Assembly (NCBI GenBank): GCA_035488835.1
Contig: DATHKX010000205.1
Span: 9,686 to 73,685 of the forward strand
DNA length: 64,000 nucleotides
Source of the DNA: Gemmatimonadales bacterium
GTDB lineage: Bacteria; Gemmatimonadota; Gemmatimonadetes; Gemmatimonadales; GWC2-71-9
Reading direction: 5' to 3'
Shown: positions 4,320-17,201 of the stretch, piece after piece
Numbering within the stretch: the first letter of the stretch is position 1
Layout of the letters: each line of letters opens with the position of its first letter
Notes under the pieces: model-generated
The model's input: only the letters and a program-made list of their open reading frames with translations
Database searches by the model: none
What the model was told of the DNA's origin: nothing
Program-made: the position numbers and the translations under genes

Positions 4320-6977
4320 CTACTCTTTGGGTGTCAGCAGCTCCTGGTACGCCGGGTAGTCACGCAGCGACCGGAGCGACGGGTAAAGGTGCATCACCCC
4401 GCCGCGTGGATACCCCTGGGCAAACGCCTCTTGCACCAGCGCGACGGCGGCGTCACGGTCGCCGAGGACGGCGTGGATCCGAGCCCGCCACATCGTGTGC
4501 CTGCCGTAGAGATACCGGGGGCTCATCGCCTGAAGCGTGCGCTCGAACCCCATCGCGTCAGCACGCCTCTCCTGGCGCGCCGCTAGCACTCCCAGAAAAC
4601 CCTGGACGGTCACCCGATCGGGCGAGTCGCCCGTGATGACCGCGATCCACCGCATAGTGGCGTAGTCCGGCACGCCCGCCGCCCGCTCCGACGCGAGACC
4701 CTCGAGCATGCGCCGCGCGTCGTCGACGCGGCCGTTCACGTAGTACGCGAGGGCGAGACGAAACCGGTTGGCCACCGAGCTCACCTCCGCGGGCGGCCGA
4801 CCTTCCAGCCAACGCACGGCCCACCCGCCGGCGGCGGGCGCGTCCGCTTGGTGATCGTGCGCCGCCAGCTCGAGCGCCGCGATCAGGGCGATGTCGGCGG
4901 GGGACCAGCCCGGCTGTGGCGGGAGACTGGGCGCATCGATCAACCGCTCGTTGATCTCGGCGGCCCGCCCCAGGGCGGCGAGCGCCCGGACCTCGGCCGC
5001 GAGCACGGCGAAGTCCGCGGGGTGGCGCCGCCGTCCTTCGCGCGCCTCCTGCAACTCGCGGCGGTGATCACCCACCAGGTGGTAGCCGAAGGTCAGGTAG
5101 AACCAATAGACCGACCAGCCGCGGAACAGGCCGCGATCGGGCCCGAGGGTGGTAAGGGCGGCGATCATTTCCCGCGGGCGATTGAGCGCCAGCGCACACT
5201 GCGCCACCAGCCACAGTACCTCGGAATTCGGCGCGATGGCGGCCATCTCGCGCGCCGTCTCGAGCGCTCGCTGCCGGTCGCCCCGGCTCTGGACGAGCAC
5301 CCACGCGAGGTAGTGCTGGTCGAGTGGAGAAAGGCGGCCGGGAGAGCGCTCCACCGCGTGCGCGATCGAGTCCGCCGTGGCGAATTCCCCCAAGTCCATG
5401 TGCTCGTGCGCTGCGAAGATCAGCGGCAGACGGAAGGTCGGGTCCTCCTGCGCGGCACGCCGGAAGTGGTCGATGGCGCCGCGTGAGTCGAACTGTACCA
5501 TCCGGTCTAGCCCCTGGATGAACTCCTGGTACGCCGCGAAGGTGGGCGGCTGGCCGGCGGCCTTGGCCCACAGGCTCAAGCGCGAGTCGAACAGCGTCGC
5601 GAGCGTGGCCATCACCCGCTGCCGGACGGCTTCCACGGCGACGAGCGGCTGCGAGATCGGTCCCGCCACCGGCTCGAGCGCGCGCAACACCGTGCCGTCC
5701 GTCGCCGCGGAGATTTGGACCTGGAACCGGATGCTGTCCGCCTGGCGATAGTAGGCCCCGGAGACCACCGTGCCCGCGCCCGTCTCGCGCCCCAGGGTCT
5801 GAATCCCGGCGGCGTCGAGATGGCCCGAGCTGTGCCCGCCCGGCGCGACCGACGCGGTCATCACCGACATCGACGACACCACTTCCACCAGGCCCGTCTG
5901 CGCGAGGCCCTGCGTCACCCAATCGGCCGCCATGTGGCCCACGTTGTCGAGCGAAGGGTCCCCAGTGTGGTTCTCGATCACGGCCACGACCACGCGATGC
6001 TGGTTGAGCTGCGATCCGCTACGACGCAGCACGTGAGCCGCGGTGCCGACGCCGAGCAGCGCGACCACAATCCCCAGGGCGAACGCGATTTTGCGTCCCC
6101 GCCGGCCGTCGAAAATGCCTCGCGTCGGCACGCTCGCGCGATAGGCCGGTGCTCCGAGCGCGGCCGCGAACTCGGTCACGGCGGGGAACCGGTCATCGGG
6201 CAGCGGGGCCAGAGCGCGAGAAATCGCGTGCTTGACGGCCCGCGCGACCGCCCCCGGGGCCCCCTGCAGGGCCCGGCTGGTCTCGAGCGCCGCCCAGTTG
6301 TGCACCCGGCGTTCCGTCATGCTCGCCACCGGCGGCTCCCCCGCCAGCATCTCGAACAGCACGCAGCCGAGGCTGTAGATATCGGTCCGTACGTCGAGGT
6401 CGCCGAGCCCCATCGCCTGCTCCGGGCTCATGTAGCCGGGCGAGCCGATCGGCTGGCCGGCCTGGGTGAGCGTCAGACTCCCGGCGGCGCTGATGGCGCG
6501 CGCGATCCCGAAGTCGGCCACGATCGCGTGCACGCCCGACAGCAGGATATTCTCCGGCTTGATGTCGCGGTGGATGATCCCCTGTGCATGGGCGAAGGCG
6601 AGCGCATCGGCGACGTCGCTGGCGATGTGCAGCGCGTCTTCGAGCGGCAGCTTCCGGTCCCGGAGCAGGCGATGCCGCAGCGATTCCCCCTCCACGTACG
6701 GCATGACGTAGTAAAACAACCCCCCCACTTCTCCGGCTGAAAAAATCGGCACGATATGGGGATGGCTGAGGTTCGAGGAGAGGTCCACTTCGCGAATGAA
6801 CCGCTCGCGCAAGAGGCGCGTGGACACTTCCGGGTCGAGCACCTTGATCGCGACCCGCCGGTGGGGATGCTGCTCCACCGCCAGGAACACCCGGGCCATG
6901 CCCCCGGCGCCGATTTCGCGCTCCACGTCGTAGCGGGGCGCCAGGCTCGCGCGCAAGGTCTCGAGCACGTCAACCAT
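4320..6977 (-). CDS. Ser/Thr protein kinase with one TM segment and a large TPR-like extracytoplasmic C-terminal domain
   Basis: GAGGMARVF glycine loop, VAIKVL, HRDIKPENILL, DFGIARA, GSPGYMSPE. Hydrophobic segment IAFALGIVVALLGVGTAA, then ~550 aa of helical repeat-like sequence. Confidence 0.9.
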   Translation of the reverse strand: MVDVLETLRASLAPRYDVEREIGAGGMARVFLAVEQHPHRRVAIKVLDPEVSTRLLRERFIREVDLSSNLSHPHIVPIFSAGEVGGLFYYVMPYVEGESLRHRLLRDRKLPLEDALHIASDVADALAFAHAQGIIHRDIKPENILLSGVHAIVADFGIARAISAAGSLTLTQAGQPIGSPGYMSPEQAMGLGDLDVRTDIYSLGCVLFEMLAGEPPVASMTERRVHNWAALETSRALQGAPGAVARAVKHAISRALAPLPDDRFPAVTEFAAALGAPAYRASVPTRGIFDGRRGRKIAFALGIVVALLGVGTAAHVLRRSGSQLNQHRVVVAVIENHTGDPSLDNVGHMAADWVTQGLAQTGLVEVVSSMSVMTASVAPGGHSSGHLDAAGIQTLGRETGAGTVVSGAYYRQADSIRFQVQISAATDGTVLRALEPVAGPISQPLVAVEAVRQRVMATLATLFDSRLSLWAKAAGQPPTFAAYQEFIQGLDRMVQFDSRGAIDHFRRAAQEDPTFRLPLIFAAHEHMDLGEFATADSIAHAVERSPGRLSPLDQHYLAWVLVQSRGDRQRALETAREMAAIAPNSEVLWLVAQCALALNRPREMIAALTTLGPDRGLFRGWSVYWFYLTFGYHLVGDHRRELQEAREGRRRHPADFAVLAAEVRALAALGRAAEINERLIDAPSLPPQPGWSPADIALIAALELAAHDHQADAPAAGGWAVRWLEGRPPAEVSSVANRFRLALAYYVNGRVDDARRMLEGLASERAAGVPDYATMRWIAVITGDSPDRVTVQGFLGVLAARQERRADAMGFERTLQAMSPRYLYGRHTMWRARIHAVLGDRDAAVALVQEAFAQGYPRGGVMHLYPSLRSLRDYPAYQELLTPKE

Positions 6978-7063: not shown

Positions 7064-8128
7064 GTGGACAGCAGAGGCTTGGCGCGATATTCCCCCTACG
7101 TGCGGCTGGCAGCGTACTACGTGCTGCTCGGCTTCGCGGTGTGGCTGCTGGTCAGGTTCGTGCCCAGCATCCCTCAGCTGTTGGAGCGGTTCCGAGAGGT
7201 CTCCCTCCTCGAAACGGTGGCCAGTCGCAACCGCCTGGTCGAGGAGGCGACGACGGCGGCGGCAAGCCTGTCTCAGGGCCAGTGGGCACTCGTCACCTTC
7301 CTGTCGATGCTCACGGCCCTGGTGCTCGTGCTGCCGGTCTCCTGGGTGTACATGCTGACCAAGCAGCGCTCGGGGTACGACCAGTCGGTGGTGCAGACCG
7401 TGATCATCCTGCCCATGACGGTGGCCGCGACGGTGATTTTGGTGCAGAACAGCCTGGCCCTCGCGTTCACGCTCGCCGCGATCGTCGCCGCGGTGCGGTT
7501 TCGCAATAACCTCAAGGACACGAAGGACGCGGTCTACATCTTCCTCGCGCTCGCGGTCGGCGTCGCCGCCGGCGTCTTCTCGCCCACCGTCGCGGCGGTG
7601 ATGTCCGTGATGTTCAACATCGTCGTGCTTGCCTTGTGGGAGCTCAACGTGGGCAACATCTACGCGGACCAGCGGAACCGGATGCCGGCCCTGCCTCCCG
7701 CTGAGGGGTTGCTGGGTCCGCGCCGACGGGCCTCCGCGGCGCTGGCCGTCGGCGATCCCGACTTGCTCGCGGCGCTCGCGCCCCACGAGCTCGAGGAGGT
7801 GGCGGACCGCGCCGCCCGCCTGCAGGCCTACGTCATGGCCCGCTCGGGCGACAAAAAAGAGGATCGGTTCAACGGCATGCTGCTCGTCCACACGACACAG
7901 CCGGAAGCGGCTCAGCGAGTCGCCGAGGAGCTCCTGCAGCTCCAGGCCCAGCGCTGGCGGCTGGCCGAAATCGTGCCGGCCGAGCAGGGTCGGTCGTCGC
8001 TCGAATACCTCATCCGGCTCCGCGACGAGTTCCTGCCCGCCACCCTCCTCGACGCCCTCAAGGGGCGTGGCAGTCCCCCCATCGACGCCGCCGAGTACCG
8101 TTCGCTTCGCGGCTTGAAGAAACGCTAG
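7064..8128 (+). CDS. DUF4956-like polytopic membrane protein with a soluble C-terminal domain
   Basis: GTG start. Several TM helices and the motif AIVAAVRFRNNLKDTKDAVYIFLALAVGVAAG, which I recognise as the DUF4956 core (xRFR..KD..D..Y.F). This family typically neighbours VTC/CYTH polyphosphate-domain genes. First gene of a tightly packed plus-strand operon. Confidence 0.6.
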   Translation: MDSRGLARYSPYVRLAAYYVLLGFAVWLLVRFVPSIPQLLERFREVSLLETVASRNRLVEEATTAAASLSQGQWALVTFLSMLTALVLVLPVSWVYMLTKQRSGYDQSVVQTVIILPMTVAATVILVQNSLALAFTLAAIVAAVRFRNNLKDTKDAVYIFLALAVGVAAGVFSPTVAAVMSVMFNIVVLALWELNVGNIYADQRNRMPALPPAEGLLGPRRRASAALAVGDPDLLAALAPHELEEVADRAARLQAYVMARSGDKKEDRFNGMLLVHTTQPEAAQRVAEELLQLQAQRWRLAEIVPAEQGRSSLEYLIRLRDEFLPATLLDALKGRGSPPIDAAEYRSLRGLKKR

Positions 8129-8134
8129 GGGACG

Positions 8135-9301
8135 GTGAGGCCTTCGGCGTGGCACCTTGCCGCCCTGGCGACGCTGTGCATCGGGCTGCCGGGATGCGGC
8201 CACGCGAGGGCGGTAAGTGCCGCTCCGGGCGCGGCGCCGCCGGCGCCTCCCGCGGAGATCGACGTTACCCTCTTTCTCATTGGGGACGCGGGCGCGCCGG
8301 CCGCGCCGCCCGACTCGGAGCCGGTGTTCATGGCGCTCCGGGCCGCCGCCACCTCCGCGCGGCACGCGGTCATCGTATTCCTGGGCGATAATGTCTACCC
8401 GAGCGGCATGCCGGACTCGGCGGCGCCCACCCGAGCCGCGGCCGAGCGCAGGCTCATGCAGGCGCTGCACGTCGTACGGGCGAGCGGCGCCCGCGGCTTC
8501 CTCGTGCCCGGCAATCACGACTGGGACAGCATGCAGCCGGGCGGCTGGGACGCGGTCCTGCGCCAGGAGCGGTTCATCGCCGCCGCGGGCGGCGGTCCCG
8601 CACTGCTGCCGGCGGGCGGCTGCCCGGGACCGGCCGTCGTGGACGTCGGAGCGGTCGTGCGGCTCGTGGCGCTCGACAGCCAGTGGTGGCTGCAGGACGG
8701 ACCGAAGCCCGCAGGCCCCACGTCGTCGTGCCCGGCCGCCACCGAGGGCGCCGTGATGGATTCCGTGCGAGCGGCACTGCGAGCAGCCGGCAATCGTGCC
8801 GTGGTCGTGGTGGCCCATCATCCGCCGGCGAGTGGTGGCGTACACGGCGGGCACTTCGGGTGGCAGGATCACATCTTCCCGCTGCGCAACATCAAGTCGT
8901 GGCTCTGGATTCCGCTCCCCATCATCGGCTCGCTGTATCCGATCGCGCGCGCCGAGGGAATCTCCAGCCAGGACATCCCCAGCCGCGCGTACACCCGCAT
9001 GCGCGTGGCACTCGACAGTGCGTTTGCGGGCGCTCCGGCTCCGCCGCTGATCTACGCGGCGGGCCACGAGCACACGCTGCAGGTGATCGCGGGCACGAGC
9101 ACGCGTTACGTGCTCGTGAGCGGCACCGGCACGTTCGGCCACTTCGACCGCGTCACGGCGCTCGACAGCACCCGGTTCGCGCGCAGCGCCAGCGGATTCA
9201 TGCGGGTCGAGTTCCTGCGCGACGGCCGCGCCCGGCTGGGCGTGATGATCGTCGATCGCGCCGGCACCGCGACGGAGGAGTTCGGACTATGGCTCAATTG
9301 A
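8135..9301 (+). CDS. Lipoprotein metallophosphoesterase (calcineurin-like)
   Basis: Signal plus lipobox (LCIGLPGC). Metallophosphoesterase motifs FLIGDAG, FLGDNVY, VPGNHDW, VVVVAHHP and AAGHEHT. Starts 6 nt after the upstream stop. Confidence 0.85.
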   Translation: MRPSAWHLAALATLCIGLPGCGHARAVSAAPGAAPPAPPAEIDVTLFLIGDAGAPAAPPDSEPVFMALRAAATSARHAVIVFLGDNVYPSGMPDSAAPTRAAAERRLMQALHVVRASGARGFLVPGNHDWDSMQPGGWDAVLRQERFIAAAGGGPALLPAGGCPGPAVVDVGAVVRLVALDSQWWLQDGPKPAGPTSSCPAATEGAVMDSVRAALRAAGNRAVVVVAHHPPASGGVHGGHFGWQDHIFPLRNIKSWLWIPLPIIGSLYPIARAEGISSQDIPSRAYTRMRVALDSAFAGAPAPPLIYAAGHEHTLQVIAGTSTRYVLVSGTGTFGHFDRVTALDSTRFARSASGFMRVEFLRDGRARLGVMIVDRAGTATEEFGLWLN

Positions 9302-11868
9302 ACAGGGCGCGAGGGCGCTGGATTGGGTTCGGACTCGCGGCAGCGCTCACCCCTGTGGCCCTCGCCGGGCAGGCGACGGCGCCGGCCCGCGCGCCAACCA
9401 AGCAGACCGTGGTCGCGGGAGACCACTACCGCGCGGGGTGGTTGCATCGCCTGTTCCTGGGCTCGCATTACCGCGACCTGTGGGCGACGCCCCTCGACGT
9501 CGAGGTGCTCGACTTGTCCCGCTTCGCCGGCGGGCTCACCCCCGCCGGCTGTGGCGGCCGGCGGCAAACGAAGGTGCTGCGCCTGCTGGGCAAGGATGGG
9601 CGGCAGTACGTGTTCCGCTCGGTGGACAAGGATCCCACGTTGGCGCTGCCGCCCGAGCTGCGGGCGACCTTCGCCAAGAAACTGGTGCAGGATCAGATCA
9701 GCTCGGCGCATCCCGGCGCGCCGCTGGTGGTCGCCCCGCTGCTCGATGCCGCCGGCGTCATGCACGTGGAGCCGCGGATCGCCCTCCTGCCCGACGACGC
9801 GCGCCTCAGCGGGTTCGATTGCGTCCCCCCTGGCTTCAAACTCGGTATGATCGAGGAGCGCCCCACGGAGCCTCCGGACAACGATGAGGGATTCGCCGGG
9901 GCGGTCGAGCTCGCCGGGACGAAGAAGCTGTTCGAGCATCTCGAGCACAGCTCTCGCAACCGCGTCGACTCGCGCGCCTATCTCGCCGCTCGACTGGTGG
10001 ACGTCTTCATCGGCGACTGGGACCGGCATCAGGACCAATGGCGCTGGGCGCGCTTCGATTCCGGCGGCGTCCATTGGTGGCGCCCCATCCCGCGCGATCG
10101 CGACCAGGCGTTCGCGCGCCTCGACGGCGTGCTCCTGTATCTCACCGGGTACTACTGGCCCCAGCTCATCGGCTTCGGCGACAAGTACCCGAGCATCTGG
10201 CGCCTCACCTTCACCGGGCAGGTCCCCGATCGGCGGCTCCTCGTGGATCTCGAGAAGCCGGTGTGGGACTCAATCGCGCGGACGATCCAGGTGCGGCTCA
10301 CCGATTCCGTAATCGACGCTGCCGTGCGGCGGCTGCCGCCCGAGTACTATCGCAAAAGCGGCGCCGCCCTCACCCGGGCGTTGCACCAGCGGCGCAATCA
10401 CTTGTTGCAGGCCAGCGACCGCTACTATGCGCTGCTCGCGGGCGTCGTGGAGGTCCATGGGACCGATGAGCGCGATGTCGCCGAGGTCGAGCGTCTCGGC
10501 GGTGGACGCGTCTCGGTGCGCCTGTCGGCTGCGGGCGCGACAGCACCGTACTACCGCCGGACGTTCGACGGCCGCGAGACGGAGGAGATCCGCGTCTACC
10601 TGCACGGCGGGGATGATCGACTCGTCGTGCGCGGCGCCGCCCGATCGGGACGCGGCCCGCTGCTGCGGGTGATCGGAGGGGGTGGGGATGACGAGCTGAC
10701 GGACTCCTCGCGCGCCGGGGGGACGAAGTTCTACGACGACCGTGGGAACAACCGGTTCGTGCGAGGACCAGGGACGTCCGTGAGTCGACGGCACTACGAC
10801 GAGCCGCCGCGCGACACGTCGACGCTCGGCCGGCCGCGTGATTGGGGGTCACGCTGGATGCCCCTCACGTGGGTCGGCTACTCTCCCGACGTCGGGCTGC
10901 TCGTCGGCGGTGGTGCCAGCGGGACTGGGTACGACTTCCGACGACTGCCGTACAACTCGCAGGTGAGAGTGCGGGCCGGATATGCGACGGCCGCCCAAAC
11001 CTACCGCGCCGAGTTCACGGGCGAATTCCGCGGCATCGTGCCTCCGGTCGTCGTGACGCTCCAGATGCGTGCGTCGGGGATCGACGTCCTCCGATTCTAC
11101 GGCTTCGGGAACGAGACCCCTGACACGGGCTCGCAGAACTTCTACAAGGTGAAGCAGCAGCAGTACCTCGTCGCGCCTGCCCTGGCATTCTCACTCTCGC
11201 CGGCCGCGACGCTCTCGATCGGCCCCGTGCTCAAGTTCTCCCATACCAACCTCGTGGGCGGCACGTTCATCAACGTCGCGCGGCCCTACGGCGTCGAAGA
11301 CCTGGGGCAGGTCGGCGCCGCAGCGGACTTTCAGGTCGACACTCGGGACCAGCCGCGTGCCGCGCGCCGCGGGATCGCCTTTGGTTTCGGCGGGAGCTAC
11401 TACCCAGCGGCGCTGGACGTGACGGCGCCGTTCGGCGAGGGCCATGCCGAGGCGAGCTCGTACCTCACGGCCCACATCCCGCTGCAGCCGACGCTCGCCC
11501 TCCGGGTCGCCGGGAAGAAGGTTTGGGGCAGCTATCCCTTCTATGAGGCGGCGTATATCGGCGGGGCAACGACGGTGCGCGGCTTCGTGGAGCATCGCTT
11601 CGCCGGCGACGCCGCCCTGTACGGGAACGCCGAGCTGCGGCTGTCCGTCGCCAAGTTCTACCTGCTGGTCCCGGGCCAGCTGGGCGTGTTCGGCCTCGGC
11701 GACGCGGGACGCGTCTACCTGTCGGGCGAGACATCGGACCGCTGGCACGCGGCTGCCGGGGGAGGCGTGTGGCTCTCGTTCCTGAGTCCCGCCAACACGC
11801 TGTCCGTGGCCGCGGCGCATAGCGTCGAGGGTACGCGCCTGTACGTGAAAGCCGGGCTGGCGTTCTAG
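9289..11868 (+). CDS. Omp85/BamA-TamA family outer-membrane beta-barrel with a ~450-aa N-terminal domain of unknown function (kinase-like motifs)
   Basis: ATG at 9289 lies in the frame of ORF 8683..11868 and gives a signal peptide (GFGLAAALTPVALAGQA). The C-terminal third shows Omp85 hallmarks (IGGATTVRGF, alternating hydrophobic strands, terminal ...YVKAGLAF). The start overlaps the metallophosphoesterase stop by 13 nt. Confidence 0.75.
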   Translation: MAQLNRARGRWIGFGLAAALTPVALAGQATAPARAPTKQTVVAGDHYRAGWLHRLFLGSHYRDLWATPLDVEVLDLSRFAGGLTPAGCGGRRQTKVLRLLGKDGRQYVFRSVDKDPTLALPPELRATFAKKLVQDQISSAHPGAPLVVAPLLDAAGVMHVEPRIALLPDDARLSGFDCVPPGFKLGMIEERPTEPPDNDEGFAGAVELAGTKKLFEHLEHSSRNRVDSRAYLAARLVDVFIGDWDRHQDQWRWARFDSGGVHWWRPIPRDRDQAFARLDGVLLYLTGYYWPQLIGFGDKYPSIWRLTFTGQVPDRRLLVDLEKPVWDSIARTIQVRLTDSVIDAAVRRLPPEYYRKSGAALTRALHQRRNHLLQASDRYYALLAGVVEVHGTDERDVAEVERLGGGRVSVRLSAAGATAPYYRRTFDGRETEEIRVYLHGGDDRLVVRGAARSGRGPLLRVIGGGGDDELTDSSRAGGTKFYDDRGNNRFVRGPGTSVSRRHYDEPPRDTSTLGRPRDWGSRWMPLTWVGYSPDVGLLVGGGASGTGYDFRRLPYNSQVRVRAGYATAAQTYRAEFTGEFRGIVPPVVVTLQMRASGIDVLRFYGFGNETPDTGSQNFYKVKQQQYLVAPALAFSLSPAATLSIGPVLKFSHTNLVGGTFINVARPYGVEDLGQVGAAADFQVDTRDQPRAARRGIAFGFGGSYYPAALDVTAPFGEGHAEASSYLTAHIPLQPTLALRVAGKKVWGSYPFYEAAYIGGATTVRGFVEHRFAGDAALYGNAELRLSVAKFYLLVPGQLGVFGLGDAGRVYLSGETSDRWHAAAGGGVWLSFLSPANTLSVAAAHSVEGTRLYVKAGLAF

Positions 11869-11870
11869 GC

Positions 11871-14800
11871 ATGACGCCTGAGTGGAAGGCAGAGGTCCCG
11901 AGCCTGGACCTGCTGAACCGCATGGTGACAGATCCACTTCCGGTGGGCCTCAGCTCCGGTCTGGTAGAGCCGTTCTTCCAACGCGACATCTACTTCGACT
12001 CCGCCGACTGGACGCTGCGTCGGCGCGGCGTGAGCTGCCGGTTCCGTATCCGGGTCGACGACCGGCGCATCCTCACGCTGCGCACCATCGGTCGGTGGGA
12101 GGGCGGCGTCCCGTTGGTGTTGCCGCAGACATTCGAAGCCGAGGTCGCCGAGCTCGAAGGCGAGCAGGCGCTCGCCGGCACGTCCGACCCGGCGCGACGC
12201 CTGCGCTCCCTCATCGACCCGGCCCTGCTGTTGCCCCGGATCCAGTTCGAAACCGAGCGGCGCGTGCGGCACACCGAGGCCGGGTGGTTCTCGCGGGGAC
12301 GCTACGACGTCGTGTACGACGTCGTGACGGTCCGGAGCCGTCAGATGGCGGTGGCGTTCGAGGAGCTGAAGGTCCGGGAGCTCGCGCGGGGCCGGCCGGG
12401 CCTCGACCGCCTGGCCCAGGCATTTCAGGAGCGGTATGGCCTGCGCCCGTCGCTGGTGGGGAAGGTAGACCGGGCCGCCAAGCTGTTGCGCGATCTGGAA
12501 AGCGGCGCCCTGGCGCAGGTCGCCCGCGCCGGCCGGGAGGTGGTCGTGGTCGCTGTCGAGGAGGGGTCCGTCGCCATGCTGACGGAATCGACCTCGCTCA
12601 CGTTGCCCGTGCGAGGCGGTAGCGGCGAGGAGACGTGCCGTGAGATCCTGCGCGCCTTTTTCGGGAGCGCGGACGGACAGGTACGGTTCCTCGGCACGGC
12701 CCCTGGGGGGTTGGCGGGCACGAGACCGGTGCTCGAGGTCTGGCTGGCGCGGCGCGTCGCCGGGGGCGCCGGTGTCGCGGGACGAGTGCAGTGGCTGCCG
12801 TTCGACGACCTGCTCGCCGCGGCCGGTTCGCCCGGGCTACGCGACCCCCGGACGCTCGCAGCGCTCACGGTGGCGGCGCGGTCGGACGTGCTCGCCGGCT
12901 GGACGCGGGGCCCTGAGCCGGTGCGGGGTGCGGCGCCGGGCCCGGCGGGCGAGCGCCGGGTGCGACTGTCCGAATACGCGCTGCGCTCCCCCATTCCCGA
13001 CATCGACCACCCAGGAGCCGAGCACTTCCTGAACGGCGATCTGAGCCTGATCGAGTTCAACGCCCGGGTACTGGAGCTGGCGGAGGACACGAGCGTCCCG
13101 CTGCTCGCCCGGGTCCGGTTTCTGTCCATCCTGAGCGCGAACTTGGACGAGTTCTTCATGGTGCGTGTCGGCGCCCTGAAGCGCGCGGCGGCAAAAGGGG
13201 GCCCGGTGGAGGTGGGTGAGGGCGGTCTCGCCGCGGACGAGCAGCTCAACGCCATCGGAATCCGGGTGCGGGCCCTGCTCGAGCGACAGTCGCGCTGTTT
13301 CACCGACGTGTGCGTGCCGGCGCTCGCCGCGCACGGCGTCCGGATCCTGCGCTGGACGGACCTGGCGGCGCCCCAACGAGAGTCGCTGCGCCGCTACTTC
13401 TCGGAGGAAGTGTTCCCCTTGATCACCCCGCAGGCCATGACGCGGGCCCCGGGGCACCCCTTCCCGCTCATTCCCACCATGCGCCTGTCCCTCGCCGTCG
13501 TGGTGCGCGACGCCCCGGGCGGACCGATGCACTTCGCCTACTTGAAGGCGCCGGAGACGCTGCCCCGCTTCGTGAAGCTCGCGGACGGGAGCGGGTTCGT
13601 CGCGGTGGAGGACGTCATCCGCGCGAACCTGAGCCAGGTGTACCCGGGCCGATTCGTGGAGGAGGCGTACGCGTTCCGCGTCACGCGCGGCGCCGACCTC
13701 GAGCTCGACGAGCATCATGCGGTGAGCTTGCTGCAGGTGATTGATGAGGAAACCAAACGGCGGCCTTACGGTGCCGCGGTACGGGTGGAGATCGCCGGCG
13801 AGATGCCGGAGGCGGTACGGGAGCTCTTGCTGCGCGAGCTGCAGTTCGAGGAAGCAGCGGCGAGCAGCCCCCCCGGCGCGGGGGATCTGTATGCGGCGGA
13901 CGGCCTCCTCGACCTCGGAGCGCTGCGCGAGCTCGCGCGCCTGCCGCTCCCCGAGCTGGACTACCCGCCGCACCGGGGCGGCGCGCCGATCGAGGAGGGC
14001 CGGTCTATCTTCGCGATCCTGGCGGAGCGGGACATCCTGGTGCACCACCCCTACGACGCGTTCGAGGCCACGGTACAGCGACTCGTAGCCGAAGCCGCGG
14101 ACGACCCGGATGTCGTGGCGATCAGACTGACGCTGTATCGCGCGGGCGGCCGCTCGGATATCGTCGAAGCGCTGCTGCGGGCCGCGGGACGCGGCAAGGA
14201 AGTGTTCGTCTTTGTCGAGCTGAAGGCCCGGTTCGACGAGGAGCGCAACATCGAGTGGGCCAAAAAGCTCGAGCAGGCGGGCATCCGGGTGGTGTACGGC
14301 CTGGTCGAGCTCAAGACCCACGCCAAGATCGCGCTCATCGTGCGCCGCGAGCGCGACGGGATCCGACGTTACGTGCACATCGGGACCGGGAACTACAACG
14401 CCGCGACGGCGGCGCTCTATACCGATGTGGGGCTCCTGTCGGCCGACCCCGAACTCGGGGCCGACTTGAACGACCTCTTCAATGAGCTCTCAGGCTCGTC
14501 GCGGCCGCCCCAGACCGCCTTTCGGCGGATCCTGGTCTCACCCACCTACCTGGCGAATCGCCTGGTCGAGCTGATCGATCGAGAATCACAGCACGCTCGG
14601 GCAGGCCGCGACGCTCGGATTCGCGCCAAGCTCAACGGGCTCACCGATCCGGAGATCATCACGGCTCTGTATCGCGCGTCGCAGGCGGGCGTCGAGGTCG
14701 CGCTCGTCGTGCGGGGCGTATGCACGCTTCGTCCCGGCGTGGTGGGGCTGTCGGAACGCATCCGTGTCGTCAGCGTCCTCGGCCGGTTTCTCGAGCACGC

Positions 14801-15080
14801 GCGCATCTACGCCTTCGCCAACGATGCCGACGCCGAGTACTACATCGGCTCCGCCGATTGGCGGGTGCGGAACTTACGGCGGCGGGTGGAGGTGGTGACG
14901 CCGGTGCGGGACGCGGTCGCCCGCGCGCGGCTCGACGCCATTCTCGACGCGGAGCTGGACGACCCCACCGCCTGGGACCTCGATCCCGACGGCGGCTATC
15001 ATCGCCGCGCGCCGGCGCCCGGCCGGGATCCCCGAAGCTCCCAGGAGCGGCTGCTCGGTCTGGCCAGTGCCATTGCCTGA
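11871..15080 (+). CDS. ppk: Polyphosphate kinase 1 with an N-terminal CYTH (triphosphate tunnel) domain and a Nudix-like linker domain
   Basis: The C-terminal ~700 aa are canonical PPK1 (LSLIEFNARVLELAED, RFLSILSANLDEFFMVRV, two PLD-like HxK regions: ELKTHAKIALIVRRE, RFLEHARIYAF). The N-terminal ~200 aa match the CYTH pattern (EWKAEV..., QRDIYFDSADWTLRRRGVSCRFRIR, FEAEVAE, AFEELKVRE). Starts 2 nt after the OMP stop. Confidence 0.9.
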   Translation: MTPEWKAEVPSLDLLNRMVTDPLPVGLSSGLVEPFFQRDIYFDSADWTLRRRGVSCRFRIRVDDRRILTLRTIGRWEGGVPLVLPQTFEAEVAELEGEQALAGTSDPARRLRSLIDPALLLPRIQFETERRVRHTEAGWFSRGRYDVVYDVVTVRSRQMAVAFEELKVRELARGRPGLDRLAQAFQERYGLRPSLVGKVDRAAKLLRDLESGALAQVARAGREVVVVAVEEGSVAMLTESTSLTLPVRGGSGEETCREILRAFFGSADGQVRFLGTAPGGLAGTRPVLEVWLARRVAGGAGVAGRVQWLPFDDLLAAAGSPGLRDPRTLAALTVAARSDVLAGWTRGPEPVRGAAPGPAGERRVRLSEYALRSPIPDIDHPGAEHFLNGDLSLIEFNARVLELAEDTSVPLLARVRFLSILSANLDEFFMVRVGALKRAAAKGGPVEVGEGGLAADEQLNAIGIRVRALLERQSRCFTDVCVPALAAHGVRILRWTDLAAPQRESLRRYFSEEVFPLITPQAMTRAPGHPFPLIPTMRLSLAVVVRDAPGGPMHFAYLKAPETLPRFVKLADGSGFVAVEDVIRANLSQVYPGRFVEEAYAFRVTRGADLELDEHHAVSLLQVIDEETKRRPYGAAVRVEIAGEMPEAVRELLLRELQFEEAAASSPPGAGDLYAADGLLDLGALRELARLPLPELDYPPHRGGAPIEEGRSIFAILAERDILVHHPYDAFEATVQRLVAEAADDPDVVAIRLTLYRAGGRSDIVEALLRAAGRGKEVFVFVELKARFDEERNIEWAKKLEQAGIRVVYGLVELKTHAKIALIVRRERDGIRRYVHIGTGNYNAATAALYTDVGLLSADPELGADLNDLFNELSGSSRPPQTAFRRILVSPTYLANRLVELIDRESQHARAGRDARIRAKLNGLTDPEIITALYRASQAGVEVALVVRGVCTLRPGVVGLSERIRVVSVLGRFLEHARIYAFANDADAEYYIGSADWRVRNLRRRVEVVTPVRDAVARARLDAILDAELDDPTAWDLDPDGGYHRRAPAPGRDPRSSQERLLGLASAIA

Positions 15081-15687
15081 GCCGGCCGCGGCCCTCGTCG
15101 CGCTCGGGCTCGCCGGCCTGATGGCCGGCGCGCCACTCGGGGCGCAAGCGTGCCGGGAACCTCACTATCGTTGGACGCAGAAGACGGACACGGCGCTCGC
15201 CGACCTCGCCCCGCAAGCGACGTCCGTCTCGGCGATCCTCGCCACCTGGGCGCCCCCCCACCTCGGGCCCCGCGACCGTTGCGCTCTCCGCTCGGGGCGC
15301 GAGCTTGGGGTTTACAACGTCACCGGCTGGGTGCGGCGGGCCGACAAGTTCAAGGACGACGGCGACTGGCACGTCGAGCTGACCGAGCGGGCCGACAGTC
15401 CTTCCGATTCTTGCATCGTGGTCGAGATCCCGGCACCGAAATACAGCGCGCGCTACGCCTCGGCCCGGGCAGCGCTCGACTCGCTGATCGGCGACAGGAA
15501 GGTCCGGAGGAGCGGGGTCCTCGCCCGGCCGGCTCTGGCGCGTATCACCGGGGCCGCATTCTTCGACGGGCAGCATCGCCGCGGCGGGCGGCGGAGCGAC
15601 AAGATCGACGGCGAGCACGGGCGCTGTAACTCATCGGTACGGGCGCTGTGGGAGATTCATCCGGTGTACCGCGTCACCTCGCCCTGA
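15067..15687 (+). CDS. Secreted protein of unknown function
   Basis: GTG start overlapping the ppk stop by 14 nt. Signal-like N-terminus (AAALVALGLAGLMAGAPLGAQA). GC3-rich coding frame, four Cys residues, no motif I recognise. Confidence 0.55.
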   Translation: MPLPEPAAALVALGLAGLMAGAPLGAQACREPHYRWTQKTDTALADLAPQATSVSAILATWAPPHLGPRDRCALRSGRELGVYNVTGWVRRADKFKDDGDWHVELTERADSPSDSCIVVEIPAPKYSARYASARAALDSLIGDRKVRRSGVLARPALARITGAAFFDGQHRRGGRRSDKIDGEHGRCNSSVRALWEIHPVYRVTSP

Positions 15688-17201
15688 GCTCGCTCCACGC
15701 GATTCCTTCCCGCCTGCTTCGCGGCGTACAGCGCTGCATCGGCGGCGCCCCGCAGGTTCGCCACGTCCCGCACCGTGTCCGGGTAGGCGGCCACGCCGCA
15801 CGAGATGGTCAGGCGGTACGCCTCCCCGGTCCACCGCCACGTCGTGGACTCGACGGTCGCGCGGATGCGCTCGGCGACCTCGAGTCCCGATATCATGGGC
15901 GTGTGGGGCATCCACACCGCGAACTCTTCGCCGCCGATCCGCGCCACCAGGTCCTTGTCGCGCACCGCCGCCTCGAGGATGCGTGCCACGTGGCGTAGCG
16001 CCGCGTCGCCGGCAGCGTGCCCCAGCGTGTCGTTCAGCTGCTTGAAGAGATCGAGGTCCGCGTAGATCAACGTCGCAATCGGGGGCGCTTTGCTCCCATG
16101 CTGCGTCAGCGCGCGCTCGAGCTCGCGTCGGTTGCGGAGACCCGTGAGCGGGTCGCTCACCGCCCGCTGCTCCGCCTCGTACACCGCGCGGGCAGCGGGA
16201 AGGCGGGACCCCAGCTCCGCGACGAGACGCTGCAGCTGGTCGGCGACGGGCGTGCCTGGTGGGAGCTGGGGGCCCATCACCACCAGGGCGCCGATCACGA
16301 AGTGGCCGTCGAACAGCGGATAGGCGGTGCCGGCGCGATCCTCGCGGCGGCGGTCGGGGAGCGCACTGCCGAAGACGTCTTCCCCGCCGCGCGAGACCAC
16401 CGGCACTCCGGACGTGATGGCCCGGACCGCCGGCGCGGCGGACGGCAGCACGAGGCCGTGGAGCCGGTTGTCCGCCGCCGTCGATACCGCCACGACCCGC
16501 AGCGTGCCGCTCGCGGGTCCGATGGCCTGCAGCACGATCACCGCGCCGCGCTGGGTGAACTGCTGGGCCAGCAACACTCCAGCCTTGGCGATCCCCTCGA
16601 GCGTCTGTGCGCTGCCCGCGATCGCGGCGAGCTGCTTCGAGACCAGTTGGGCGGGATGCTCGCCAGATTCGTGCGACCGCGCGAGCCGCATCCCCGCGAC
16701 GATACGACGCAGCTCTTGGGTGACGGCCGCCGCTTTCTCGGGTGTGGCGTCCGGTTGCGGAAGCAGCAGCCCGGCGCCGAAGGGGAAGTCACCCACGGCG
16801 ATGTAGCTGCCGGCCGGATCGCGTGCGACGTGGGCCCGCCCGTCCACCGAGGCGAGTTGCACGAGGGCGGAGCCGCGCTGGCGGGCCGCGCCGTCCACCT
16901 CTTCCCTCCCGAGGACTTCGACCTCGCTGTCGTCGAGCCCCACGGCCCAGCCGGCCCGCGCCCCGTGCGCCCGGCGCAGCAGGTCCAGGGTGTGCTGGAA
17001 GTCGGACGGCCGGGTGAGGGTCTCGTCCGCCAGCCACACCCGCACCAGCGGTCCCAGCGCCAGCCCGGTCGCCGCGACGAAGCCACCGAGTGCTGCGACC
17101 AGCGGCCAGCCGTTCCCGCTCAGGACGGCCGGGACCACGGCGGCCAGGCCGAGCACGGCGAGTCCGCGCCCGACCCAGACGCCGGCTCGGGGGCCCTTCA
17201 C
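15657..17201 (-). CDS. Diguanylate cyclase (GGDEF) with an N-terminal membrane/sensor region
   Basis: [39 protein letters not shown] (active GGEEF). RDKD lies five residues upstream of GGEEF (RxxD I-site). N-terminal TM helices. The GTG start overlaps the larB stop (GTGA). Confidence 0.85.

Follow-up and report, generated by a model that had tools for sequence, protein, structure and literature searches.

What stands in front of an Omp85 barrel where POTRA repeats normally sit, and what would it do there? This question is raised by a gene in a stretch of 64,000 nucleotides from a Gemmatimonadales bacterium (GenBank assembly GCA_035488835.1, contig DATHKX010000205.1, positions 9,686 to 73,685 of the forward strand; the whole stretch is hereafter the window). 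The gene encodes an 859-aa protein with a C-terminal Omp85 barrel, and lies between genes for a metallophosphoesterase (MPE) and a polyphosphate kinase, PPK1. An earlier note, made from the sequence alone, had read the region preceding the barrel as a lipid-kinase-like domain exported to the periplasm, a compartment that, to our knowledge, is generally held to be free of ATP and of kinases. We find that this region is predicted to adopt a protein-kinase-like (PKL) fold, and we refer to the protein and its relatives as PKL-Omp85. On balance, we lean towards the view that it is an exported protein making up half of a phosphatase-paired outer-membrane module, and likely an active phosphotransferase tied to polyphosphate.

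Predicted fold of the region upstream of the barrel

The public collections hold an identical 859-aa gene call, labelled 'hypothetical protein' or 'surface antigen Omp85-like protein'. A longer ORF of 1061 aa, starting at 8683, was rejected as the true gene, because the ATG at 9289 gives both this public call and a signal peptide common to the homologues, which begin likewise with a signal peptide or with lipoprotein signal peptides. Residues 1–32 were disordered in the AlphaFold2 (AF2) model. In the Pfam search, the barrel family PF01103 was matched at residues 556–841 (27.5 bits against a cutoff of 24), together with a weaker match to ShlB, and the first ~550 residues gave no match, POTRA included. 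Even with the threshold relaxed to E≤10, POTRA profiles gave no match in the protein or in 62 homologues, and the full-length AF2 model (pLDDT 88.9, pTM 0.83) contained no β-α-α-β-β (POTRA) unit upstream of the barrel. The claim of the earlier note that this region does not consist of POTRA repeats is thus borne out. The NCBIfam matches fell on the C-terminal part only and were of the Omp85 type (NF047779, E 1.3e-18, 67.7 bits, under the curated cutoff of 200). In a Foldseek search, the barrel, which follows a linker of ~20 residues (500–520), matched TamA (4c00, E 3.1e-11) and also BamA (~1e-11), and the loop-6 motif VRGF was found at residues 763–766 (nt 11575–11586). Taken together, these results and models predict a true Omp85 barrel in which the POTRA array is replaced by a PKL domain, a helical bundle and an all-β stalk.

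For the analysis of the N-terminal domain, residues 28–480 were used as the query; 548 homologues were found, of which 62 were aligned (alignment A1) for AF2. The resulting model had a pLDDT of 93 and a pTM of 0.92. Searched against the Protein Data Bank (PDB) with Foldseek, it gave 17 matches at E≤1e-3 and 22 at E≤1.5e-3, all of which were kinases of the PKL fold. These were led by CtkA of H. pylori (JHP0940; 3akl, E 1.3e-5, TM-score 0.53 on the Foldseek target), PI4KII-alpha (4hne, E 3.9e-5) and CotH (5jda, E 6.4e-5), each with a probability of 1.00, and further matches included PI4KII-beta, the bacterial Ser/Thr kinases 7wcf and 7vkc, and HipA/HipT. The query also held the helical bundle and the β stalk, elements that are foreign to kinases. 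The modelling and structure search that the earlier note had proposed therefore recovered kinase-fold proteins only, with CtkA first and PI4KII-alpha among the top matches. The kinase-like part of its reading stands, but its emphasis on lipid kinases is not specifically borne out, since CtkA/HipA and CotH are equally near; its ATP-grasp-like alternative was rejected, as no ATP-grasp structure was among the matches. The end that it gave for the domain, 10650 (residue 454), falls inside the β stalk, and the kinase-like core corresponds to nt 9394–10188. These observations suggest that residues ~36–300 adopt a PKL (bilobal kinase) fold near CtkA/HipA, type II PI4-kinases and CotH.

We then compared the domain with each of these kinases by sequence. 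No match to PF00454 (PI3_PI4_kinase) was obtained at E≤10 in any of the 62 homologues, no Pfam match to HipA_C in the protein or in these homologues, and none that was significant to CotH (PF08757), for which the best value among the 62 members was E 0.13. A profile of the trimmed core (A3), searched against 177,635 PDB sequences, had CtkA as its best match at a non-significant E of 0.45, and the aligned stretch consisted of the catalytic loops (GDWDRHedQW against GNFDRHNGNW). Weak sequence matches to cytokinin dehydrogenase, aldolase and a designed Ig protein were dismissed as chance.

CtkA, the best structural match, was also the sole kinase recovered by the sequence profile. The two proteins have in common a catalytic loop of the form G-D/N-x-D-R-H-x-x-N/Q-W, followed by a conserved Asp ~20 residues on. 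CtkA is a secreted kinase, and action outside the cytoplasm of the producer would be a further likeness. The PKL-Omp85 domain differs from CtkA and HipA in the absence of significant sequence similarity and of a HipA_C match, in Gln for Asn and in the Arg of the β3 strand; its chain continues into a helical bundle, a β stalk and a barrel of the Omp85 type, and it is not part of a toxin–antitoxin pair. PI4KII-alpha and PI4KII-beta resemble it in the catalytic loop (DWDRHQDQW against NTDRGNDNW), the following motif (RDRDQAF against IDNGLAF) and the β3 strand (YVFR against AVFK). In contrast to these enzymes, the window protein lacks a PF00454 match, a significant hhalign score and the palmitoylation or membrane-insertion elements; it is bacterial, exported and tethered to a barrel, and a lipid substrate is only hypothetical. 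The likeness to CotH extends from the structure to the genomic context, in which an atypical PKL enzyme occurs with a DUF4956 membrane protein and with an enzyme that belongs to the CYTH superfamily or synthesises polyphosphate (PMC7112168). The differences are the lack of a PF08757 match, a CYTH-PPK1 here compared with a VTC-like polymerase there, and the setting, which here is the outer membrane of a diderm, with the domain attached to an Omp85 barrel and partnered by an MPE.

Conserved residues and distribution of the family

Next, residue conservation was assessed in an alignment of 237 sequences, in which the window protein was joined by 146 representatives of clusters and by 90 ORFs taken from genomic loci. 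The alignment covers at least eight phyla: Gemmatimonadota, Ignavibacteria, Bacteroidota, Chlorobi, Latescibacterota, KSB1, Poribacteria and Acidobacteriota. Conservation of at least 97% was observed for G90, R110, K114, D135, R235, D238, D243, D245 (99%), R246, W253, D270 (100%), R271 (97%), D272 (100%) and G280, while G89 and Q93 were conserved at 90–97% and H247 at 93%. Position 250 is Gln in 95% of the sequences and Asn in all of the remaining 5%; Asn is the canonical kinase residue at this metal-binding position. The three motifs named in the earlier note were found exactly as claimed, and the invariance that it had asked about was observed, as D-R-H-x-x-Q-W and D-R-D-x-A-F vary little or not at all.

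On the predicted secondary structure, the order of these elements is that of a canonical kinase, with a Gly-rich segment, a β3-like strand, an αC-like helix, an αE-like helix, D245-R-H-x-x-Q250, a hairpin and D270-R-D272-x-A-F. In the AF2 model, R110 lies within the strand 106–111, K114 just past it and D135 in the helix 128–139. The segment YVFRSVDKD, taken in the earlier note as a nucleotide-binding Lys strand, thus includes a β3-like strand, but the role of its Lys is uncertain, as the residue within the strand is R110 and K114 comes after it. Based on this arrangement, R110 or K114 would be the counterpart of the basic residue of β3 and D135 that of the αC acid, the two perhaps forming an ion pair; D245 is a candidate for the catalytic base, and Q250 and D270 would stand in for the metal-binding Asn and the DFG Asp, respectively. 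At every catalytic position that is canonical for kinases, the modelled PKL domain has a conserved counterpart, and because of this it is probably an active extracytoplasmic phosphotransferase.

Outside the kinase-like core, high-level conservation was found in the β stalk, at T431, R435 and D443 (at least 97%) and at G466 and D468 (90–97%), and in the loop-6 motif of the barrel, at R764 (at least 97%) and G765 (90–97%). Stalk residues 439–468 (nt 10603–10692, + strand) contain two GGDD-type motifs, HGGDD (439–443) and GGGGDD (463–468). These resemble Ca-binding β-roll repeats, and one homologue had a very weak Pfam match to RTX repeats (E 3.6).

An exhaustive profile search of clusters formed at 50% identity gave 4188 representatives at E≤1e-3, of which 2178 also reached E≤1e-30; those listed are mostly full-length proteins of ~860 aa. 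Among species-representative genomes, the family was found in Gemmatimonadota, Ignavibacteria/Melioribacteraceae, Chlorobi, Bacteroidota (Larkinella, Pedobacter, Daejeonella and Chitinophagaceae), Rhodothermales, Calditrichaceae, Latescibacterota, KSB1, Poribacteria and Acidobacteriota. The presence of cultured carriers (Larkinella and Pedobacter, for example Larkinella punicea with WP_114409583.1 and Pedobacter alpinus with WP_379041437.1) makes experiments feasible. Tandem PKL-Omp85 paralogues are common; seven loci contain them (L003, L014, L017, L032, L033, L043 and L050), and two contain two copies that are non-adjacent or on opposite strands (L029 and L040). The public names of family members are only 'BamA/TamA family', 'metallophosphoesterase' and 'hypothetical'. 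We found no paper or database name recognising a kinase-like domain in these proteins, and a literature search for Omp85 with kinase-like and metallophosphoesterase gave no paper joining Omp85 with 'kinase-like'.

A PI3K-like bacterial PKL family, SEAE1 from Segetibacter, was described in a preprint of September 2026, according to which it is abundant in Bacteroidota and has lipid kinases as its closest structures (bioRxiv 10.64898/2026.09.18.752743). Its catalytic spacing, as given there (D216, N221, D241 and D243), is identical to that of D245, Q250, D270 and D272 in the window protein. SEAE1 is intracellular by its description, has Asn rather than Gln and other gene neighbours, and comes with no mention of Omp85 or MPE. 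The distance from the Lys to the catalytic Asp is 76 residues in SEAE1 and 131–135 in PKL-Omp85, the families being compared by description only. The PKL-Omp85 proteins thus appear, on the models, to constitute a new PKL family, unprecedented in its Omp85 architecture and in its compartment. An exported kinase fold with conserved catalytic residues, joined to an Omp85 barrel, would represent a new branch of the kinase-like superfamily, and would imply that Omp85 barrels are able to carry enzymes at the site of the POTRA repeats.

Phosphatase partner, polyphosphate genes and possible functions

The MPE encoded immediately upstream in the window contains the motifs GDAG50, GDNVY84, GNHD126, AHHP227 and GHEH310, a set that we take to be the seven-ligand signature of purple acid phosphatases (PAP). 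Together with the lipobox, these PAP-type motifs indicate a putative envelope phosphatase. To describe related neighbourhoods, we examined ±8 kb around the PKL gene in 80 related loci. An MPE gene was present in 23 of these and stood directly upstream of the PKL gene in 19, six of them with in-frame fusion, in Daejeonella, Larkinella (two), Rhodothermales, Pedobacter and Sphingobacteriales. The MPE is carried on the barrel polypeptide in L052, L062, L064, L072, L078, L079 and P0152, the last with the order Metallophos, PKL and Omp85. The fused ORFs of Bacteroidota and Rhodothermales, ~1210–1250 aa in length, are labelled 'BamA/TamA family outer membrane protein' or 'Metallophosphoesterase' in RefSeq/UniProt. 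The earlier note had suggested a check for MPE-fused homologues in other phyla, and such homologues do exist. Three arrangements were therefore observed: an MPE gene followed by a PKL-barrel gene, as in the window; a single fused ORF; and three separate genes, as in L009 (7839–11813). In the latter, from a Bacteroidota metagenome-assembled genome (MAG), a PKL lipoprotein of 537 aa, an MPE that is a probable lipoprotein, and a barrel of 383 aa without an N-terminal domain are adjacent. Barrel-less lipoprotein homologues of ~535 aa were numerous in the search with residues 28–480. These gene arrangements suggest that the PKL-barrel protein and the MPE are the two halves of a conserved two-enzyme outer-membrane module.

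The architecture of the fused Bacteroidota homologues matches exactly that of the 'Metallo' class of Omp85 proteins of Heinz and Lithgow (2014), defined by PF00149 and an Omp85 barrel without recognisable POTRA (PMC4104836). The window protein is a split-gene relative of this class, since its MPE is a separate lipoprotein gene. The 2014 description names the PF00149 domain a 'metalloprotease', and in its accessible part the ~450-residue kinase-like, helical and β region between the phosphoesterase and the barrel is not mentioned (PMC4104836). The PKL family would account for this large unassigned region of the class. The Riemerella anatipestifer metallophosphoesterase/OMP76 was set aside, being a T9SS-secreted MPE of unrelated architecture.

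Besides the MPE, the neighbourhoods contained DUF4956 in 22 of the 80 loci and PPK1 in 17 (8 as CYTH fusions). PPK1 or DUF4956 was present in 32 loci, and at least one of MPE, DUF4956 and PPK1 in 45. The loci bearing PPK1 or DUF4956 come from Gemmatimonadota, Ignavibacteria, KSB1, Latescibacterota, Poribacteria and Acidobacteriota. Assuming one or two ppk1 copies per genome of 4–6 Mb, the chance expectation for PPK1 is estimated at fewer than 1 in 80 loci. These results indicate a real and conserved gene-neighbourhood link of the PKL-Omp85 module to polyphosphate genes.

The remaining neighbours were grouped by unbiased clustering. An SdiA-regulated/phytase-like β-propeller was present in 29 of the 80 loci, typically between DUF4956 and the MPE, and Ser/Thr kinase–tetratricopeptide repeat (TPR) proteins resembling that encoded at 4320–6977 in the window in 18; genes of the latter kind are plentiful in these phyla generally. 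Proteins with HD and PycTM domains occurred in 16 loci, PAP2 phosphatases and nucleotide cyclases in 8 each, DUF2652 in 6 and SixA-like phosphatases in 5. The propeller (PF06977, weakly phytase-like, with a signal peptide) is the commonest extra neighbour, for example at L046 6775–7683, L006 5845–6891 and L039 11767–12672. Genes for HD with PycTM (Pycsar effector TM), DUF2652 and membrane adenylate/guanylate cyclases adjoin fused MPE-PKL-Omp85 genes in Bacteroidota and Ignavibacteria (such as L078 4550–5743, L062 4728–5978 and L052 3786–4436), and may form a cyclic-nucleotide module. When the propeller, HD-PycTM and PAP2 genes were sought in the window, none was present. Judged by their predicted domains, the neighbours appear to share the theme of phosphate chemistry at the envelope.

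Where would the PKL domain act? We place it, with some hesitation, on the periplasmic rather than the surface side, because the first strand of an Omp85 barrel starts in the periplasm and the linker to the barrel is short; there, the PKL domain and the PAP-type MPE would work together on the periplasmic face of the outer membrane. Under the chief competing reading, which we consider unlikely though of real weight, the barrel would be a type V translocator (Vd-like or two-partner-like), with the PKL domain and the fused phosphatase exposed on, or released from, the surface, acting on extracellular or host/prey substrates or in phosphate scavenging. Such display would accord with the secretion of CtkA, with the coexistence of fused, split and three-gene forms, as in autotransporter and two-partner systems, and with L009, where both enzymes are lipoproteins beside a stand-alone barrel without an N-terminal domain. 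The PlpD/FplA type Vd autotransporters, too, consist of an N-terminal enzyme domain followed by a C-terminal 16-stranded Omp85-type barrel, and the order of signal peptide, enzyme passenger and C-terminal barrel is that of PlpD-type Vd proteins (PMC4104836). However, PlpD carries a patatin-like lipase passenger and one POTRA, whereas the window protein has a PKL domain, no patatin and none of the POTRA found in type Vd and TpsB transporters. Just ~20 residues link the stalk to the barrel, an Omp85 N-terminus lies in the periplasm by default, and no cleavage site or surface-export signal was identified, all of which argue against surface display.

With respect to catalysis, several points weigh against an active phosphotransferase tied to polyphosphate. 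The TM-scores from Foldseek, 0.35 on the query and 0.44–0.53 on the Foldseek target, are modest. Pfam, NCBIfam and PDB phmmer/profile searches placed the N-terminal domain in no kinase family, and hhalign against PI4KII-alpha (sequence checked against 4hnd) gave E 0.09–0.22 over the catalytic loop only. These sequence methods fall short of significance, yet they point the same way as the structure, to the catalytic loops of CtkA and PI4KII-alpha. The assignment of residues to functions is built on secondary-structure order and motif analogy rather than on coordinates. Two residues are atypical, Arg for Lys in the β3 strand and Gln for Asn in the catalytic loop, and these oddities of Arg110 and Gln250 could mean another donor, another chemistry or no catalysis. 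Within 8 kb, PPK1 and DUF4956 are both missing from over half of the related loci, and many loci come from related Gemmatimonadales, so that the counts are not independent. Moreover, the periplasm is not known to offer ATP. The lack of an obvious ATP source there and the same two substitutions would fit a non-catalytic module, in which the kinase fold might position the phosphatase, or bind a ligand such as polyphosphate, a nucleotide or the head group of a phospholipid, and would replace POTRA as the periplasmic element with which the barrel binds partners. Non-catalytic roles of PKL scaffolds are documented, for example SrfA-N in the SEAE1 preprint (bioRxiv 10.64898/2026.09.18.752743). We regard this reading as improbable, since pseudokinases usually lose the catalytic and DFG Asp, while D245, D270 and D272 are conserved here at 99–100% over at least eight phyla and position 250 is limited to Gln and Asn, a pattern that suggests selection on metal or phosphate chemistry. 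That the substitutions are unusual yet invariant might also point to a kinase fold with another chemistry: AMPylation (as SelO), glutamylation (as SidJ), polyphosphate-dependent transfer, or hydrolysis of phosphoesters or phosphoanhydrides on envelope lipids, LPS or polyphosphate. The phosphate-rich neighbours (the PAP-type MPE and PPK1, and elsewhere PAP2, the HD phosphohydrolase, the SixA-like phosphatase and the SdiA-regulated/phytase-like propeller) are consistent with this, but classical phosphotransferases have this same motif geometry (D-x4-Q/N ... D), and we consider such a departure very improbable.

Returning to the phosphotransferase, the recurrence of the module beside DUF4956 and PPK1 or CYTH-PPK1 suggests a functional tie to polyphosphate, which would be the phosphoryl donor, or a substrate or product, of the PKL module. 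That the connection is mechanistic in this sense is possible, if on the doubtful side; the earlier note had offered polyphosphate as phosphoryl donor as a speculation, and the idea is still a hypothesis, albeit one with a stronger motivation than before. In its most complete form, an envelope-spanning pathway would be assumed, in which polyphosphate from CYTH-PPK1 at the inner membrane is handed to the periplasm by the DUF4956 protein, and the outer-membrane-tethered PKL domain uses it in place of ATP to phosphorylate envelope or extracellular substrates. The invariant Arg110 and Gln250 would then be adaptations to the polyphosphate donor, and the PAP-type partner would be the opposing eraser. 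We give this complete pathway only a small chance. If true, it would provide the first ATP-independent kinase/phosphatase pair outside the bacterial cytoplasm. A cassette of CotH kinase, polyphosphate polymerase and DUF4956 (plus DUF4832) has been reported to be conserved in streptococci, clostridia and bifidobacteria (PMC7112168). Because CotH is among the top structural matches and its cassette includes DUF4956, the set of PKL, CYTH-PPK1 and DUF4956 in the window looks like a diderm counterpart, and under the complete pathway the Gram-positive cassette would be the monoderm one. Through its phosphatase partner and its recurrent neighbours DUF4956 and PPK1, the module, like that cassette, would offer a concrete entry point to the function of DUF4956 and to extracytoplasmic polyphosphate as a source of energy or phosphoryl groups.

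Layout of the locus

The window has a G+C content of about 68–72%. The PKL-Omp85 gene lies in an operon of probably five plus-strand genes (7064–15687), separated or overlapped by just 2–14 nt. The DUF4956 stop at 8128 is followed by the MPE start at 8135, the MPE stop at 9301 overlaps the PKL-Omp85 start at 9289 by 13 nt, and the PKL-Omp85 stop at 11868 is followed by the PPK1 start at 11871. The nearest relative among the species-representative genomes searched, a Gemmatimonadetes MAG (L001), has the same gene order and an N-terminal domain that is 78% identical.

Table 1. Genes of the operon, and predicted domains and motifs of the PKL-Omp85 protein, in positions of the window
Feature	Position	Strand	Basis
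DUF4956 inner-membrane protein, 354 aa, first operon gene	7064–8128	+	Pfam PF16316, E 1.5e-11
Metallophosphoesterase (MPE) lipoprotein, 388 aa	8135–9301	+	Pfam PF00149, 22.4 bits against a cutoff of 21.5; lipobox LPGC
PKL-Omp85 gene, 859 aa	9289–11868	+	Translation
Putative signal peptide (Sec-type) MAQLNRARGRWIGFGLAAALTPVALA/GQ, residues 1–27	9289–9369	+	Read from sequence
Predicted PKL catalytic domain, residues ~36–300 (~265 aa)	9394–10188	+	AF2 and Foldseek
Gly-rich-loop-like GG(R/G)xQTK (residues 89–95), then β3-like strand QYVFRS with R110, then K114	9553–9633	+	Conservation, model
Motif YVFRSVDKD, residues 107–115	9607–9633	+	Sequence
αC-like helix segment QDQISS with D135	9688–9705	+	Helix 128–139 in model; conservation
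Candidate catalytic-loop motif VDVFIGDWDRHQDQWRW, residues 237–253	9997–10047	+	Conservation; after αE-like helix 228–241
Candidate DFG-equivalent motif PIPRDRDQAFA (D270, R271, D272), residues 266–276	10084–10116	+	Right after β hairpin 251–268
Predicted helical bundle, residues ~303–384	10195–10440	+	AF2 helices, pLDDT >90
Predicted all-β stalk, residues ~386–499, in place of POTRA	10444–10785	+	AF2, strands only
16-stranded Omp85 barrel, residues 521–859	10849–11868	+	PF01103; 16 long strands, 521–856, in AF2
CYTH-domain-fused polyphosphate kinase 1 (PPK1), 1069 aa	11871–15080	+	Pfam PP_kinase N, middle, C1 and C2 (E 1e-30 to 1e-70)
206-aa ORF	15067–15687	+	14-nt overlap with the PPK1 stop

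The DUF4956 protein showed hydrophobic segments at residues 12–38, 72–100, 107–144 and 153–197. The Pfam domain spans only residues 87–204, and a C-terminal extension of ~150 aa is kept in homologues from Gemmatimonadota, KSB1 and Poribacteria (tblastn alignments cover residues 1–353 of the query). The literature on DUF4956 is close to nil, with five papers that mention it, and pairing DUF4956 with polyphosphate as search terms matched no paper. In the PPK1 of the window, the N-terminal CYTH (triphosphate-tunnel) domain occupies residues 29–166 (Pfam E 1.5e-6), and the protein holds ~200 additional residues. The 206-aa ORF, which had no match in the Pfam search, may be the fifth and last gene of the operon; its homologues stand downstream of PPK1 in L002 and L003. 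Upstream of the operon and divergent from it, a gene for a Ser/Thr protein kinase whose C-terminal part is a TPR region was found at 4320–6977 (− strand). Convergent to the operon end, a gene at 15657–17201 (− strand) encodes a diguanylate cyclase of the GGDEF type that has a long membrane/sensor region at its N-terminus; this gene overlaps the 3′ end of the 206-aa ORF by ~30 nt.

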